Shown: positions 54,346-63,384 of the stretch, piece by piece
How positions within the stretch are numbered: position 1 is the stretch's first letter
Layout: every line of letters begins with the position of its first letter
Origin: a bacterium
GTDB taxonomy: Bacteria > Margulisbacteria > Marinamargulisbacteria > SXXA01
Reading direction: 5' to 3'
NCBI GenBank assembly: GCA_010028705.1
Contig: RHAI01000001.1
Location: 3,104 to 67,103 of the forward strand
Length of the DNA stretch: 64,000 nucleotides
Program-made: the position numbers and the translations under genes
The notes under the pieces: model-generated
What the model was told of the DNA's origin: nothing
What the model saw: only the letters and a program-made list of their open reading frames with translations
Database searches by the model: none

Positions 54346-54693
54346 TTACTTTGATGCTAATTGAACAACAGACCTGAAAGTTTCAGGATTGGAAATCGCC
54401 AATTCGGACAACATCTTTCGATTTATCTCAATATTATTACGTTTCAAACCACCAATAAATCGCGAATATGAGATACCCTCAGCAGTAACCGCGGCGTTTA
54501 TTCGGGAAATCCACAATGCCCGAAAATCACCTTTTTTGTCACGACGATCGACGTACATGTGGCGCATCGCTTGAAGAACTGCCTGGTGGGCCTGACGATA
54601 TAATTTTGAAATACCACCGCGGTATCCTTTTGCAAACTTGAGAACTTTTTTTCGTCGATTTCGGGCAACATTACCTCGTTTAACTCGAACCAT
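54346..54693 (-). CDS. rplT: 50S ribosomal protein L20
   Basis: [27 protein letters not shown]... is canonical bL20. Confidence 0.95.
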
Positions 54694-54719: not shown

Positions 54720-54914
54720 CTAAGCGTAAGGTAAGCACGCTTTAATTTTGTTCATGTCTGAATCAGACACTGCAAAAAAGCCCCGCTTGTTTCGCTTAAG
54801 TTTGGACGATTTGTGACCTAATAAATGCCGCCTCCCTGAAACATTACGAACTACTTTTCCGGTAGATGTAATTTTGAATCGTTTAGCTGCTGCTTTTTTT
54901 GTTTTTAATTTCAT
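54720..54914 (-). CDS. rpmI: 50S ribosomal protein L35
   Basis: MKLKTKKAAAKRFKITSTGKVVR...; 64 aa, canonical bL35. Confidence 0.9.
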   Translation of the reverse strand: MKLKTKKAAAKRFKITSTGKVVRNVSGRRHLLGHKSSKLKRNKRGFFAVSDSDMNKIKACLPYA

Positions 54915-54942: not shown

Positions 54943-55446
54943 TTATTTGGGATTCAAAAACGCAATTAAGGACCGACCTGATTGACTCACTTGCCCCTCT
55001 AAAGTGCCATTCTCACGCAACAAGTCCACAAATTTATCCACGTTTTGACGACCTAACTCGGGGTGAATAATTTCCCGACCACGGAATGATACGGATACTT
55101 TAACCTTAAACCCTTTTTCTAAAAACTCTCGTCCGTGATTTACCCGAACCATCAAATCGTGCTCCGATATTTTGGCGCTCAATTTGAGTTCTTTAATAAC
55201 ATGGCTCTTGGATTTTTTTTGAGCTTGTTTTTCTTTTTTTCGCTGTTGGTACTTAAATTGACCAAAGTTGACCAACTTGCATACCGGCGGATCAGAGGTT
55301 TCCGAGACGAGCATTAAATCTAAATTACCGTCCCTCGCCATTGTCATCGCACTCTCTATTGGGACAATACCGTGCTGAGTACCATCATCGCCAATCAGTC
55401 GCACAGTGCGAGCTTTGATTTTTTCATTTAGTAAATACTTTTTTAT
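54943..55446 (-). CDS. infC: Translation initiation factor IF-3, with a probable non-AUG (AUA) start
   Basis: The conserved IF3 N-terminus LNEKIKARTVRLIGDDGTQHGIV lies upstream of the GTG at 55404 used by the ORF track. The frame is open back to an ATA codon at 55446-55444. That ATA is preceded by AGGAGG at a 7-nt spacing. infC classically uses AUU/AUA for autoregulation. Confidence 0.8.
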   Translation of the reverse strand: MKKYLLNEKIKARTVRLIGDDGTQHGIVPIESAMTMARDGNLDLMLVSETSDPPVCKLVNFGQFKYQQRKKEKQAQKKSKSHVIKELKLSAKISEHDLMVRVNHGREFLEKGFKVKVSVSFRGREIIHPELGRQNVDKFVDLLRENGTLEGQVSQSGRSLIAFLNPK

Positions 55447-57355: not shown

Positions 57356-57385
57356 ATGAATCATCAAGAATTAAGCCGAGGAAAC

Positions 57386-58528
57386 GCCATGCAATTTTCA
57401 TGTTCTGCATCTCAGTTACAAAAAGCCGTCGGAATCGTAGAGCGAGCTATTTCTCAACGGACTACACTGGCCGTTTTGGAGAATCTTTATTTAGAGCTCA
57501 GTGGAAATCGATTAAAACTTCGAGGTAACGACCTAGAAATTGGAATCGAAACTAGCCTGTTCGTTGAGTCTGCTGGGGTGGATGGTTCGGTGTTAGTTCG
57601 GGCGAAGACTTTTAGTAGTATTCTGTCTAAAATTCAGGCCGACACCCTGAATGTTCGAGTCGATGTGAACTCAAAAATTGTGATAGTTGCGAATAAGGTT
57701 GATTTCGAAATTTTGTGTACCCCGGTTGAAGATTATCCGATTTTCCCCGCCGTGGAGTCTGGTATTTCATTCACTATGTCGGCGTCCGTGATACAGGATT
57801 TGATTCGGCATACAATTTTTGCCGTTAGCTTTGATGAAACAAAGCAGTTTCTGAATGGGATTTTCGTCAAAGTTGAGAGTGGCAGCATCAATTTCGTTGC
57901 GACGGATGGCTATCGCTTGGCGTTAAAACGTCATACTCTCGACCAAAGCAGCGTCGGGGATTTTTCATTAATCGTTCCTCATAAAGCAGTCAATGAATTA
58001 CTTAAAATTTTGGGCACTTTGGGGGATGACGCGCCAATTAAATTAAATGTTTCTGAGTCTCAAATTGCCTTTGAGTCCGAACGGTTTTTATTAGTGTCGC
58101 GTGTAATTAAGGGGCAATTTCCCGATTACCGGCAAGTGATGCCAAAACACTCTGATAATTTATTTTCAGTGTCTCGGCATTCACTGTTAAACGCGTGTGA
58201 TCGAGCCACGATTATTGCCGCAACCTCAAATAATGTTGTTCGATTAAATTTCAGCGAAACCAGCGTATTGATCAAAGCTAACGCCGCGAGTTTAGGTGAC
58301 TTTAAAGAAGAAATTGATGTTTCGCGGTTGAGTGGTGCGGGTGAAGTGAAAATCGCATTTAACGTTAAACTGGTATTAGATGGGATTCGCGGAATTAGCT
58401 CGGATGATATTCGATTGGAATTCAATCAGGGAGTCTCGCCGTGCGTGGTTCGTTCGGCGGCGGATGAGGATTATGTATACATTGTGATGCCGATACGTAC
58501 AAATGACTTTCAGGAGGAAACTGCCTAG
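57386..58528 (+). CDS. dnaN: DNA polymerase III beta sliding clamp
   Basis: Start set at MQFSCSASQLQKAV, which aligns with the MKFT... N-terminus of DnaN homologs. The ORF track starts 10 codons earlier. The three-domain clamp length is ~380 aa. Confidence 0.9.
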   Translation, partial: AMQFSCSASQLQKAVGIVERAISQRTTLAVLENLYLELSGNRLKLRGNDLEIGIETSLFVESAGVDGSVLVRAKTFSSILSKIQADTLNVRVDVNSKIVIVANKVDFEILCTPVEDYPIFPAVESGISFTMSASVIQDLIRHTIFAVSFDETKQFLNGIFVKVESGSINFVATDGYRLALKRHTLDQSSVGDFSLIVPHKAVNELLKILGTLGDDAPIKLNVSESQIAFESERFLLVSRVIKGQFPDYRQVMPKHSDNLFSVSRHSLLNACDRATIIAATSNNVVRLNFSETSVLIKANAASLGDFKEEIDVSRLSGAGEVKIAFNVKLVLDGIRGISSDDIRLEFNQGVSPCVVRSAADEDYVYIVMPIRTNDFQEETA

Positions 58529-58533
58529 GTGAA

Positions 58534-59601
58534 ATGCTGCGTCGGATCTGGGTTAAAAATTTTAGAAATTTATCCGAGCAGCTTTTAGAGTTAGATCCTA
58601 AATTCACAGTTATTCGTGGGGAAAACAATCAGGGAAAAACAAATTTATTAGAGGCCATTTATTTTGGTATTTCAGGGGGGACGATTATGGATGAGTCGTT
58701 ACATGATCTCCCCAGTTTTTCCTCGGCTGATTCGGCCGTTGTGGGGGTTGATTTCGAGTCGTCTACTTCCCATCGGCTGTACCGAGAGGTATCGAGGCGG
58801 GGGGCAAAGTTTCCAGTTCTGGATGGTGAATCGGTTCGTCAAGCGAGGGACCAGGTACCTCATGGCGCTGCCTACTGGTCGGCTGATCTGATTCGATCAA
58901 TTCAGGACTCAGCCGACGAGCGCCGAAAGATGGTTGATCGAATAGTGGTTAAAAAAGATCGTAAACTCGAGTTTTTGTACAAGTCGTATCAAAGGGTTCT
59001 GTCACAACGAAACGCGTGTTTACGAACCGGTAATCGGTCTCTTATTCGATTTTATAATGATCGGTTTATTGAGCTATCGATGGCCGTAACTTCGGCGAGA
59101 GAAAGAATGGTCGTCGAGTTATGTGATCGGGTAGGTCCCTATATATCTGACATTTTAGGGGACCGGCTACTGACGGTGAGTGGGGTGATCCAAATGAAGG
59201 GAATTGATCGTTTGCAAGACGTTGATTCATTCAAGCACGCGCTAGAACATCGGCTTGAAAAAGATTTCGCGTTGGGGTTTACGTCCGTTGGGGCCCATCG
59301 AGATGATATTGAATTTTTTATAGACGGTCAGTCGGTGGTGCGTTATTTGTCACGAGGCGTTAATCGTATTTTTGCATTGTTATTAAATTTGTCTGGTCTT
59401 GAATCGATGGTTTCCAAGGTGCCGATGATTTTATTAATTGATGACGCCTTCTGTGAGGTGTCCAGTCGGTTAAAGGATCGCGTACTACCGTTTTTATTGG
59501 GGCGGTTTCAGATCGTTTACGTTTCGACGAATACTGACGAATTTCGTGATTTTTCGGGGAAACGATTTATAATGGAATTGGGTGTTTGTACTGATGGATA
59601 A
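58534..59601 (+). CDS. recF: DNA replication and repair protein RecF
   Basis: A 355 aa ORF: MLRRIWVKNFRNLSEQ...GENNQGKTNLLEAIYF, with Walker A and a C-terminal SMC-like signature region. Confidence 0.9.
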   Translation: MLRRIWVKNFRNLSEQLLELDPKFTVIRGENNQGKTNLLEAIYFGISGGTIMDESLHDLPSFSSADSAVVGVDFESSTSHRLYREVSRRGAKFPVLDGESVRQARDQVPHGAAYWSADLIRSIQDSADERRKMVDRIVVKKDRKLEFLYKSYQRVLSQRNACLRTGNRSLIRFYNDRFIELSMAVTSARERMVVELCDRVGPYISDILGDRLLTVSGVIQMKGIDRLQDVDSFKHALEHRLEKDFALGFTSVGAHRDDIEFFIDGQSVVRYLSRGVNRIFALLLNLSGLESMVSKVPMILLIDDAFCEVSSRLKDRVLPFLLGRFQIVYVSTNTDEFRDFSGKRFIMELGVCTDG

Positions 59602-60061
59602 GCTAGGTGATACGCTTGGACGGATTAAGGCGGTCAGTACGGTATCTCGAAACCACCACTTAGTCAGTCAAATTGTAAAGGCATGGCGGGATTTAGCTGG
59701 AAAATTGGCGGATGATATTTCCGTAGAGTGGGTTCGTGACAAAGTTCTTTACCTGAGTTGTACTAACTCACTTTGGATTTCAGAAGCGGAATTTATCAAG
59801 CCGAGGTTACTGGAGCGAATCGGCGCCGAGTTCGGTAAAAATGTTATTAAATCAATTAAGATTCGGTATTTTGATCCGATTCGAAGCGACGGTTCGGTGA
59901 TGACTGCACCTGTTCCAAAATCGTTACAGCAATTGATATTGGAATCAAACTTTGCGAGAAGGGAACAAGGAATGTCTCTATGCGACGCCTGTGGTGATGT
60001 ATACTGTAACGGCGGCCAATGCATATTTTGCAAGGTAAAATCTCAATCTACCCAAGGTTAA
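59582..60061 (+). CDS. DUF721 (DciA-like) domain protein with a C-terminal Cys-rich zinc-ribbon-like tail
   Basis: It follows recF. ...WVRDKVLYLSCTNSLWISEAEFIKPRLLERI... resembles the DUF721 core. The tail reads CDACGDVYCNGGQCIFC. The real start may be MDKLGD at 59594. Confidence 0.55.
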   Translation: MFVLMDKLGDTLGRIKAVSTVSRNHHLVSQIVKAWRDLAGKLADDISVEWVRDKVLYLSCTNSLWISEAEFIKPRLLERIGAEFGKNVIKSIKIRYFDPIRSDGSVMTAPVPKSLQQLILESNFARREQGMSLCDACGDVYCNGGQCIFCKVKSQSTQG

Positions 60062-60114
60062 TGGTTAGTTGCTACCATGGGTGCTGGTACAGTTTGTCGA
60101 GGAGGTGAATTTGA

Positions 60115-60201
60115 ATGGGAAGTTTGATTAAAAAACGACGAAAAAAAATGCGAAAACATAAATATAAAAAGTATGGACGCAAAATGAAGGCCAAACGATA
60201 G
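60115..60201 (+). CDS. 28-aa highly basic mini-protein resembling ribosomal protein bS22 (DUF4295-like)
   Basis: MGSLIKKRRKKMRKHKYKKYGRKMKAKR. A perfect SD (GAGGAGGTG) lies 8 nt upstream. The N-terminal pattern MGS[VL]IKKRRK.M.K.K resembles bS22 of Mycobacteria and Bacteroidota. It is too short for the ORF track. Confidence 0.5.
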   Translation: MGSLIKKRRKKMRKHKYKKYGRKMKAKR

Positions 60202-60291
60202 TTCGTATAAAAATGTTTAAAATTATTACCCCTGGGAATTATAGCGGTCTCATCATATTTAAATAATTTATAGTTCCCGGGGGGTATTTTT

Positions 60292-60645
60292 ATGGAGTCT
60301 ACGGCGGCCGTCGTTGATCGATATAACGTCGAAACAGTTATTGCTCATATTGTGCGATTGGGAGTCGGTATTTATCGGAAATTTGGTCGGTGTGTGGTGG
60401 TGTCCTCGAATCCTCACTCCACTGGATTTAGTAAAGAGCTGGTTGAATTTTCTGGAACAGGTTTGCGATATATTTCGGTACTATCACGATGTCAAAGCCG
60501 TTTTTATTTTGATTACTCAACGAATACGTTAATTGGAGGTGACCGCGAAATTTCAGTCGGGTATTTCGTTGGCCTTGGTGCTGATGTATTTCGGCTGGTT
60601 CGGGGAATCGATTCTCGAAAAAGTCATATTTATTTAATTTCTTAA
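60292..60645 (+). CDS. Hypothetical protein
   Basis: A 117 aa ORF with an SD-like GGGGGGT upstream. No recognised motifs were found. Confidence 0.35.
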   Translation: MESTAAVVDRYNVETVIAHIVRLGVGIYRKFGRCVVVSSNPHSTGFSKELVEFSGTGLRYISVLSRCQSRFYFDYSTNTLIGGDREISVGYFVGLGADVFRLVRGIDSRKSHIYLIS

Positions 60646-60655
60646 GGGGGGAATT

Positions 60656-62569
60656 ATGGGCGGGGTATCTGAATGTCGAGCTGTTGGAGGGTCCGATTTC
60701 CGTCAACCATTGAGTGGCGTTCAATCGGAAATCGATTTTATTCGGAACGTTACGGGTTCGTCGACGTCTCGTGTTCGATTGATAAATTTTGAGTCTATGT
60801 CAGAGCGATTTCTGTCTCAATTTTCACGGTTCCGGGGGGCGTGTCGAGCGTTGTTGGCTGTGGATAATCCGTTGAATGTTAAAAAAGTGGTTACGGATAT
60901 GGCGTTTCGTTCGTTTTTTGCTCCGCCTACCGCGATGGTTGAGTCGGCATCCCGGTTGTTGGATAGATTATCGTCGGTTGATATGTCGTTTTTGAATAAA
61001 GTAGATTCGATCGTGTCTGTTTGGCGTTCGTTATCGAGCGCTGGTTTTCTGCGTAGTCGAGATAATCGAGAGTTCGCTGTCGGTAAAAAAAACTGGGGGC
61101 ATCCAATTAATCGGGGCCTGCATTCTTTTGAGATTGACGATATAGGGTTTGATCGGCACGATTTACATACGATTGAGGGGGGCGATTTTGAAGCTCGGTT
61201 TAGGCCGCATTCTGTGTCGGAATTTGCCTCACAACTAAGGTTATCCGATTTCGATTTATTAGGTGAGGATCATAGCTTGACGTCTGATTCAATAGTTGGG
61301 TCGGTGTTGCATGATTGCGAAGTCCAGTGTTTTGATCCGTCCTTGATGGGTGGGTCCGGAGGCGTAGGGACCTCTGTTAGTACATCGGGGCCATTGGGAT
61401 CGTTGTATCAGTTTGAAATGGATAGTAGTTATTTGGCTTTGGACGATGGTAATTCAGCGGTAGCGAGGAAACCTTTACCCCTGGTTGGTGCCGAATTACG
61501 CCCGGTAGGTGACAGTGAGGAAGTTTATTATCATCGTGGGTCCCAATTGGCTCAACTTGAGCAGATTCCGATTGAAAACAGCTCGAGGTTAGGAATAAAT
61601 AATTTTGAAGTCGACGCCGTTAATTCAGATAACAATCATTTTTTATCGAGATTTGAAATTTGTTTCAAACGAACAGTGGAAAAGGTGAATAAAACGGAGA
61701 CGATAAGTGATTCTGGGTATTGTCTGAATAGGGATAAAGCTGGATATTTGGATGTAAAAGCTAACACCGTGAGGAAAAAATCTGTTTTTGAGCAGTTTGA
61801 TGATATGGTCGCCCACCGGTTCGGGGCTGAATTTATGAATTCTAGTCAAAATGTTGTCGACTATTTTCGTTGGAGAGATTGTTACGGGAACCGGCTAGGC
61901 GCTCATTCGTCGGGTGATGGTGACGGCGTCGGCCGGCCGGGTGGGACCGGGGGTGGATTTCTTGGTGTTGTGTGCGAGCCGGATCGCTATGATTTGTCGG
62001 GATTGGGTGTTTACGACGAGTTGTTCGACGATTTTTCGGATCTTGGGGAGGAGTATGAAAATATTTTCGGCTCGGTCCGGCGGGTCCATGGGTATATTGA
62101 TCGGATTAATCACCGGTGGGATATCGCGATTGAATATATTGAAACGTTTTTGAAGCTCTGTGGTGTCTCAGTAGGTAGTAGTGGGAAGTTTCCGCGATCG
62201 TCGATTGACACGTTACGATCATTGGAAGGTCTTATCAATGATAGGTCGTTGTTGGTTAAAGTTTTGGGTAGTGATAACGCGGTCGTGTCGACGTACACGG
62301 ATTTGGTTGAGTTGTGTAATGAAAATGAAAAAGATATTAAAAAAGTGACACATATAATCGACGGTATTATGATTGCTACTGAGCGATTTTGCGGTGAAAT
62401 AGGTATTTTTGATAAGGATCATCGATATTGTGATTGTGATGAGATTCGGTCTCACGTGAAACATTTGAAAAATGATCTTAATCGTATAGGTCAATTTAAA
62501 TTGGGCAGTTATGAATCACTTTGGGAGGCCACTAAATACGCCGTGTATTCGAATGTCGAGCCTGCTTAA
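60656..62569 (+). CDS. Hypothetical 637-aa acidic, Ser/Gly-rich cytoplasmic protein
   Basis: A long ORF with an upstream SD (AAGGGGGG). It has no TM helix and no recognisable catalytic motif. It sits where gyrB usually lies in the dnaA-dnaN-recF cluster. Confidence 0.45.
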   Translation: MGGVSECRAVGGSDFRQPLSGVQSEIDFIRNVTGSSTSRVRLINFESMSERFLSQFSRFRGACRALLAVDNPLNVKKVVTDMAFRSFFAPPTAMVESASRLLDRLSSVDMSFLNKVDSIVSVWRSLSSAGFLRSRDNREFAVGKKNWGHPINRGLHSFEIDDIGFDRHDLHTIEGGDFEARFRPHSVSEFASQLRLSDFDLLGEDHSLTSDSIVGSVLHDCEVQCFDPSLMGGSGGVGTSVSTSGPLGSLYQFEMDSSYLALDDGNSAVARKPLPLVGAELRPVGDSEEVYYHRGSQLAQLEQIPIENSSRLGINNFEVDAVNSDNNHFLSRFEICFKRTVEKVNKTETISDSGYCLNRDKAGYLDVKANTVRKKSVFEQFDDMVAHRFGAEFMNSSQNVVDYFRWRDCYGNRLGAHSSGDGDGVGRPGGTGGGFLGVVCEPDRYDLSGLGVYDELFDDFSDLGEEYENIFGSVRRVHGYIDRINHRWDIAIEYIETFLKLCGVSVGSSGKFPRSSIDTLRSLEGLINDRSLLVKVLGSDNAVVSTYTDLVELCNENEKDIKKVTHIIDGIMIATERFCGEIGIFDKDHRYCDCDEIRSHVKHLKNDLNRIGQFKLGSYESLWEATKYAVYSNVEPA

Positions 62570-62619: not shown

Positions 62620-63384
62620 ATGTCATGTAAAGTTCTAGCGGTGGTAAATCAAAAAGGCGGCGTCGGCAAAACGACGACCGCTATTAATATTGCGTCTTAC
62701 CTAAGTGAATTTGGGAATAAAGTACTGTTAATCGATTTGGATTCTCAATCGAACGCCACCTCTGGGTTAGGGCTTCGTCCCGATACAATACAGGCTGGGA
62801 TTTATGATCTATTAATATCAGAGGCTCCTATTTCGACGGTTCTATATCCGACCCCATTTGATAAATTGCATATTATTCCAAGTACAAAAGATTTGGCTGG
62901 GGCGGAAGTCGAGCTGGTCGGATTTGATTCACGTGAAACCGTACTCCGTGACCGTATATCTGGATTGAGGTCTTATTATGATTATGTCGTGATGGATTGT
63001 CCGCCGTCCCTCGGTTTGATTACCTTGAATGCCTTGGTTGCAGCGGATAGGACATTGATCCCAGTCCAGTGCGAATATTTCGCCTTAGAAGGTATCGCTA
63101 GTTTATTAAACACCTTAGGTCTGGTTAAAGAAATGTTCAATCCGGGTCTGGAAATTTCAGGTATAGTCCTTACGATGTATGATAAGCGAACAGCCTTAAA
63201 TCGGCAGGTGGCCGAAAACGTTCGGACGTATTTCAAGGACTTGATCTACGAAACAATTATTCCTCGAAATGTTAGGCTGTCTGAGGCCCCGAGTCACGGG
63301 TTACCGATTTCGTTATATAAATCTGATTCTAGGGGTGCCATTGCGTACTTAAATTTAGCTCGGGAGGTAAATAGGCGTGATTAA
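62620..63384 (+). CDS. parA: Chromosome-partitioning ATPase ParA/Soj
   Basis: A 254 aa ORF with the deviant Walker A KGGVGKTTTAINIA and the MDCPPSLG motif. Confidence 0.9.
   Translation: MSCKVLAVVNQKGGVGKTTTAINIASYLSEFGNKVLLIDLDSQSNATSGLGLRPDTIQAGIYDLLISEAPISTVLYPTPFDKLHIIPSTKDLAGAEVELVGFDSRETVLRDRISGLRSYYDYVVMDCPPSLGLITLNALVAADRTLIPVQCEYFALEGIASLLNTLGLVKEMFNPGLEISGIVLTMYDKRTALNRQVAENVRTYFKDLIYETIIPRNVRLSEAPSHGLPISLYKSDSRGAIAYLNLAREVNRRD

Follow-up and report, generated by a model that had tools for sequence, protein, structure and literature searches.

The 87-nt open reading frame (stop included) that closes the replication-origin cluster dnaA-dnaN-recF-dciA is a real gene, whose product is under strong selection at the level of the protein. 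It is very probably a gene of the bS22/mS38 family (PF08213) in marine Margulisbacteria, its placement on the ribosome being drawn from homology. The stretch of DNA analysed here, 64,000 nucleotides (64 kb) in length, is referred to as the window.

The ORF comprises 28 codons, with ATG as the start codon and TAG as the stop codon, and its product is MGSLIKKRRKKMRKHKYKKYGRKMKAKR. By direct count, 16 of the 28 residues are basic (11 Lys and 5 Arg) and neither Asp nor Glu is present. A Shine-Dalgarno (SD) sequence, read directly from the DNA (Table 1), is separated from the ATG by the spacer ATTTGA. The first-pass annotation, in which the SD had been written as GAGGAGGTG (60099-60107), was accurate in describing a 28-codon ORF with 16 Lys or Arg residues and a strong, well-spaced SD. 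The last three bases of the spacer form an in-frame TGA immediately 5' of the ATG and, therefore, a start further upstream is impossible. AGGAGGTG occurs only once in the window when both strands are counted, in this SD, which is the strongest of the window. The other sense frames over the ORF are interrupted by stops, and the antisense frames are open because of the Lys/Arg codons.

A crude census of the ORFs of at least 150 aa found AGGAGG near a possible start in 1 of 49, and 35 of the 49 had no 4-nt SD core at 4-18 nt from any start candidate within the first 40 codons. This genome may make little use of SDs in general, with the strong ones of the bS22-family gene and of infC standing out. 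The latter gene probably starts at a non-canonical ATA (55443-55441) with CAGGAGGAACCAGT just before it. Position 11 of the IF3_N profile is the first one matched by the mechanically called infC ORF, which begins at a GTG at 55404, and the sequence upstream of it in the same frame reads IKKYLLNEKIKARTVRLIG. infC is known for its autoregulated unusual start, which the ATA reading fits, and it is followed on the same strand by rpmI and rplT.

Table 1. Features around the small basic ORF and their positions in the window
Feature	Position	Strand	Evidence or remarks
rplT	54346-54693	-	
rpmI	54720-54914	-	
infC	54943-55443	-	
dnaA	55797-57140		
dnaN	57356-58528		
recF	58534-59601		
dciA (PF05258)	59582-60061	+	Pfam; co-oriented upstream neighbour
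Shine-Dalgarno AGGAGGTGA	60100-60108	+	Read directly; 6-nt spacer to ATG
Predicted bS22/mS38-family (PF08213) basic mini-protein gene	60115-60201	+	ORF, PF08213 match, syntenic orthologues, pN/pS
Terminator-like hairpin followed by G-UAUUUUU	60229-60291	+	16-bp stem and 23-nt loop at 60229-60283; RNA folding
ORF of 117 aa (u117)	60292-60645	+	No Pfam match
ORF of 637 aa	60656-62569	+	No Pfam match
parA-type ATPase	62620-63384		

Against Pfam, the peptide gave a single match, to PF08213 (COX24_C), with 27.3 bits versus a gathering score of 23 (E 3.3e-6, residues 1-28). This profile, formerly DUF1713, represents the mS38/bS22 domain and has 33 positions, to which the whole peptide was aligned. 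The 12 orthologues described below all matched it at E≤10 (best E 1.4e-7), and matches above the gathering score were reported for all 12 peptides. In NCBIfam the sole match was NF047430 (ribo_bS22, an equivalog), with an E of 3.8e-5 and 23.7 bits, under the curated cutoff of 34, and this was likewise the only NCBIfam family matched by the 12 orthologues (best E 2.3e-5). A profile of the 12 sequences, searched against 177,635 distinct PDB sequences, returned solely bS22 of Mycobacterium and Cutibacterium (E 0.003) and mitochondrial mS38 (E 2-6), and the single peptide (E≤10) also returned solely bS22 and mS38 chains. bTHX, eL41, bL34 and bL36 were found neither among the PDB matches nor among those to Pfam/NCBIfam at E≤10. 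After removal of the first four residues (MGSL) the peptide had no PDB match. The detectable similarity is carried mainly by the N-terminal two-thirds (approximately 19 residues); the C-terminal third, KKYG[KR][KR]MKA..., is lineage-specific and unlike that of all structurally characterised bS22.

The closest structural reference is bS22 of Mycobacterium smegmatis/tuberculosis (MSMEG_0945, Rv0550B) and Cutibacterium acnes (PDB 5O5J, 5O61, 5XYU and 8CRX, among others) which, like the peptide of the window, consists of some 30 aa, is not part of a larger protein and has no acidic residues. The mycobacterial protein agrees with it at 10 of the 12 positions of the N-terminus MGS(V/L)IKKRRK(R/K)M and at 15 of 28 overall, and both have Lys16 and match PF08213 and NF047430. 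In contrast, the mycobacterial and Cutibacterium proteins have 33 aa against 28 in the window, and the C-terminal third reads RKLLRRTRVQRRKLGK where the window has KKYGRKMKAKR. The window's host belongs to another phylum, Margulisiibacteriota, and here the ribosomal placement would follow from similarity. mS38 (AURKAIP1 in mammals, Cox24 in yeast), the only protein other than bS22 among the PDB matches, carries the PF08213 domain at its C-terminus and is much longer, 111 to >500 aa (PMC10081302), and its direct sequence matches to the peptide are weak (E ~1-6). This protein fills the same rRNA pocket as bS22 (PMC10618245, PMC10081302).

These results bear out the proposal of the first-pass annotation that the ORF encodes a bS22-like, ultra-basic mini-protein with a predicted ribosomal role. 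They do so through PF08213 and NF047430, which are the right profiles, and not through DUF4295, which had been put forward as the bS22 profile. DUF4295 (PF14128) is bL38 of Bacteroidia, a 50S protein of 5.6 kDa whose gene comes after rpmB-rpmG (PMC7797042). Like the peptide studied, bL38 is small, basic and recently discovered as a ribosomal protein, but identity with it was rejected, given that no match to PF14128 was obtained at E≤10 and that the gene follows dciA instead of rpmB-rpmG. The N-terminus had also been likened to bS22 of both Mycobacteria and Flavobacteria. It is indeed of the actinobacterial and mitochondrial type, but the flavobacterial half of the comparison found no backing, as the Flavobacterium, Porphyromonas and Borrelia bS22 chains gave no PDB match at E≤10 with either the peptide or the 12-sequence profile. 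The bS22 of these organisms (Fjoh_1533; AAQ66340.1 in P. gingivalis; bb0822) has about 30 aa and about 60% Lys/Arg, is often missed by gene callers, has a non-ATG start in Borrelia, and occupies the pocket of mycobacterial bS22, both types being treated as structural counterparts (PMC10618245, PMC7797042, PMC12123416). In the work on the Borrelia ribosome, standard mass spectrometry did not reveal bS22 (PMC10618245).

The related loci, which encode DnaN relatives, come from genomes of Candidatus Marinamargulisbacteria/Margulisiibacteriota. Fourteen of them (among L002-L018) reach far enough past recF/dciA to be informative, and the same ORF was present in 11. Its peptide was 71-96% identical to that of the window across these relatives, against 23-37% for DciA, 27-43% for RecF, 46-74% for DnaN and 58-77% for DnaA. 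Over codons 2-21 in 12 genomes, pS was 0.855, near saturation, and pN 0.024, with a ratio of 0.028. The start codon, constant in position, was ATG in eight of the relatives, GTG in a single one and TTG in the remaining two. A GGAGG/GGAG core lay 5-10 nt 5' of the start in 11 of the 12 orthologues, whose flanking sequences, the upstream ones included, were unalignable outside the SD. The orthologue alignment has 18 invariant columns, K16 included, and the motif of residues 1-12 given above is constant in the 12 orthologues except for I/V at position 5. Thus both a profile match and conservation in relatives (11 syntenic orthologues, pN/pS ~0.03), on which the first-pass annotation had made its proposal depend, were found.

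No copy was detected within 6 kb of dnaN in L014, L015 and L018, which points to a gene that is dispensable in these genomes or else can change its genomic position. Two of these loci are Saanich Inlet bins in which dciA is followed by a very AT-rich, ORF-free spacer of about 400 nt (L014, 8705-9103; L015, 8705-9109) and then by parA; neither the bS22-family gene nor the two ORFs lacking a Pfam match occur at this position. A search of 5.8 billion sequences with an over-extended 44-aa call of the ORF (P0014) returned solely Margulisbacteria-type peptides, because the E-values of short queries collapse in a database of that size. One peptide of this type (P0030), 93% identical to the query, lies in the EukProt entry COSAG01_NODE_9, a 43.7-kb contig, which suggests a Marinamargulisbacteria contig within a eukaryote assembly through contamination or association. 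Some labels of metagenome-assembled genomes are apparently wrong as well. L017 is titled "uncultured Rickettsiales bacterium" but its dnaA-dnaN-recF-dciA-bS22 locus is of the Marinamargulisbacteria type, and among P0015, P0016, P0037 and P0069 Margulis-type peptides are labelled "Rickettsiales" or "Actinomycetota" and Acidimicrobiia-type ones "Acidobacteriota" or "Gammaproteobacteria".

Outside Margulisbacteria, a scan of metagenomes, with the aligned peptides as the query, revealed 62 loci encoding MGSL[IV]KKRRKKMSKHKYRKR[LIR][KR][AS]NRHK..., on contigs with a GC content of 29% to 72%. Exact look-up of these peptides placed them mainly in Acidimicrobiia (Actinomycetota), with others in Thermodesulfobacteriota and the SAR202 cluster, and the names given to them by NCBI are "AURKAIP1/COX24 domain-containing protein", "aurora kinase A-interacting protein" and "30S ribosomal protein bS22". 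The Acidimicrobiia and Thermodesulfobacteriota peptides are the closest ones outside Margulisbacteria (61-71% identical to that of the window over the full length and 84-89%, with 2-3 differences, over the first 19 residues) and have the KHKY motif in common with it. With SAR202 included, these peptides are similar in length (29-31 aa), whereas their tail, R(L/I/R)(K/R)(A/S)NRHK..., is unlike that of the window. Scores against NF047430 (cutoff 34) descended from 59.5 bits in Mycobacterium to 35-39 in the Acidimicrobiia and Thermodesulfobacteriota types, of which several pass, 28-29 in other actinobacterial and SAR202 types and 23.7 in the window. This graded series indicates that the protein of the window is a divergent member of one continuous family, scoring above the threshold of the family profile and below that of the strict equivalog. 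Constraint, common ancestry or transfer could each account for the near-identity of the first 19 residues in Marinamargulisbacteria and marine Acidimicrobiia, and 28 residues are too few to tell the three apart.

A low-GC (29-36%) marine group among the scanned loci (L044, L055, L056, L063-L065, L068, L072, L078, L079, L081-L083) encodes MGSLIKKRRKKMSKHKYRKRRKSNRHKKK(SV), with AGGA-type A-rich leaders in place of GGAGG. The 31-aa form of this peptide was absent from the protein collection on exact look-up. The group is probably a low-GC marine lineage of Acidimicrobiia, judging from the GC content of "Ca. Actinomarinales".

The first-pass annotation had read the ORF as a sign of an FCB or Actinobacteria-type ribosome composition. 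This does not hold, as the host belongs to Candidatus Marinamargulisbacteria, an uncultured lineage in a phylum that falls in the Cyanobacteriota/Melainabacteria group, and the family has further members in Thermodesulfobacteriota and SAR202. Given its copies in Margulisbacteria, Acidimicrobiia, Thermodesulfobacteriota and SAR202, the family is no marker for Actinobacteria or the FCB group.

With regard to the locus, a gap of 53 nt separates the gene from dciA. Of the 11 relatives carrying the ORF, 10 had a tblastn match to dciA immediately 5' of it, and all 11 had a co-oriented ORF 21-120 nt upstream of it. A consensus scan of 59500-60700 gave no sigma-70-like promoter either in the gap or elsewhere in that interval, which is compatible with read-through or co-transcription with dnaN-recF-dciA. 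At gathering scores, an Rfam scan of the window reported nothing apart from four tRNAs, with no element at the bS22-family locus. Such a steady association with dnaA-dnaN-recF-dciA in Marinamargulisbacteria (dciA in 10 of 11 carriers, a same-strand ORF in 11 of 11), together with the lineage-specific C-terminal third and the score under the bS22 equivalog cutoff, could be taken to mean that this PF08213-family peptide acts off the ribosome, for instance as a nucleic-acid-binding protein tied to the origin cluster. We consider this unlikely. Homologues in other lineages have contexts unrelated to dciA (a kinase and PAC2 in one case, a metallophosphatase and an AP endonuclease in another), and the names and coordinates of MSMEG_0945/Rv0550B and bb0822 place them away from the origin cluster (PMC10618245, PMC10081302). 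In addition, L014 and L015 retain dciA-parA in the absence of the peptide, and linkage in a single class is weak evidence of function. Finally, all the family members characterised so far are ribosome-bound (PMC10618245, PMC7797042, PMC12123416, PMC10081302).

Downstream of the ORF, the stem of the hairpin has a predicted energy of -22.4 kcal/mol, the surrounding 94-nt region scored a z of -3.2 versus shuffles, and the U-tract abuts the ATG of the 117-aa ORF. A hairpin and T-run are also found 3' of the ORF in L010, L013 and L017, and the structure may function as a terminator; the consensus terminator scan of 59500-60700 left it unreported because its loop exceeds 8 nt. The 117-aa ORF itself has no SD before its ATG, and its conservation was detectable just in the closest relative, L002 (32% identity). 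A strong hairpin with a U-tract that lies between two ORFs and touches the start codon of the second could suggest that the peptide is a regulatory leader (uORF) controlling the downstream gene through the hairpin. This is very improbable in view of the variable downstream neighbour over the 12 loci (u117, a MEMO-like gene, a response regulator, murI-like genes or genes on the opposite strand). Moreover, leader peptides are not conserved to the extent of this near-invariant one (pN/pS 0.03), nor do they match a ribosomal-protein profile.

Shortness, low complexity and antisense frames that are open too would fit an ORF that arose by chance in an A-rich spacer between genes, its SD being fortuitous and its profile match driven by composition. 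None of 10 shuffled peptides of the same composition matched COX24_C at E≤10 and, therefore, composition alone is insufficient to explain the PF08213 match. The chance ORF is refuted by these shuffles together with the eleven orthologues and their pN/pS, in which synonymous change is saturated and amino-acid change near nil; ATG, GTG and TTG starts are interchanged, and near-identical N-termini are encoded in genomes of 29% to 72% GC. A small cationic toxin or antimicrobial-type peptide, similar to type I toxins, is just as implausible: the peptide is indeed small and highly cationic, and one relative gave a noise-level YonT match (E 2.5, 8.3 bits versus a cutoff of 45), but it has no hydrophobic segment, nothing at the locus suggests an antisense RNA or antitoxin, its specific similarity is to bS22/mS38 alone, and its conservation extends across phyla in the manner of a single-copy housekeeping gene.

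For the bS22/mS38-family protein preferred here, a function can be proposed from its known homologues. Cryo-EM of Mycobacterium, Cutibacterium, Flavobacterium, Porphyromonas and Borrelia ribosomes has shown bS22 as a bent helix, buried between h2, h27, h44 and h45 of the 16S rRNA beside the decoding centre and reaching H68/H70 of the 23S rRNA, with which it forms an intersubunit bridge (PMC10618245, PMC7797042, PMC12123416). M. smegmatis can grow without this protein but then becomes more sensitive to aminoglycosides, and Lys16 of the protein is reported to shape the aminoglycoside pocket of h44 (PMC10081302). In Borrelia the gene for bS22 is among the candidate essential ones (PMC10618245). 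By homology, the peptide of the window would be translated at a high level, possibly from the end of a dnaN-recF-dciA transcript terminating at the downstream hairpin, and would take up its bent-helix fold solely on binding rRNA. It most likely sits in the h44/h45 pocket of the 30S subunit, as Mycobacterium bS22 does, seated among h2, h27, h44 and h45 beside the decoding centre, where its Lys/Arg side chains would neutralise the rRNA backbone. No 16S rRNA is encoded in the window. The C-terminal part would contact H68/H70 as an extra intersubunit bridge, as in the homologues; the C-terminal third is where the peptide departs from actinobacterial bS22, and this modified tail may alter the bridge contacts.

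The ORF had been presented as unannotated. This is correct for the matching ENA metagenome contig (ERZ27247967, k141_721251), in which it is uncalled, but the identical protein is present in NCBI nr. NDC82090.1 has the exact 28-aa sequence under the name "AURKAIP1/COX24 domain-containing protein [bacterium]", and the orthologues bear the same NCBI name in Marinamargulisbacteria and Margulisiibacteriota records. The protein is therefore already known, its sequence being public and named for the family. The minimum gene length of Prodigal is 90 nt, and the 87 nt of the gene, under this minimum, are likely the reason why it was not called. It is a clean case of a real and highly conserved gene that falls just short of the length limit of a common gene caller. 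In this regard, the finding is nothing new in kind, the study of the Borrelia ribosome having foreseen further overlooked copies (PMC10618245).

Margulisbacteria join the lineages with a bS22/mS38 mini-protein. Since bS22 adjoins the decoding centre and the aminoglycoside site, the presence of the gene predicts a ribosome with that extra element. If the ribosomal placement is true, a lineage beside Cyanobacteria, outside the three phyla with bS22 in ribosome structures, has a bS22/mS38-type 30S protein, and its altered tail could change the intersubunit bridge. It is possible, although we regard it as doubtful, that a bS22/mS38 protein was ancestral in a broader slice of Bacteria than structures suggest, or that it was transferred between co-occurring marine lineages; an ancestral bS22/mS38, if true, would bear on the origin of mitochondrial mS38.
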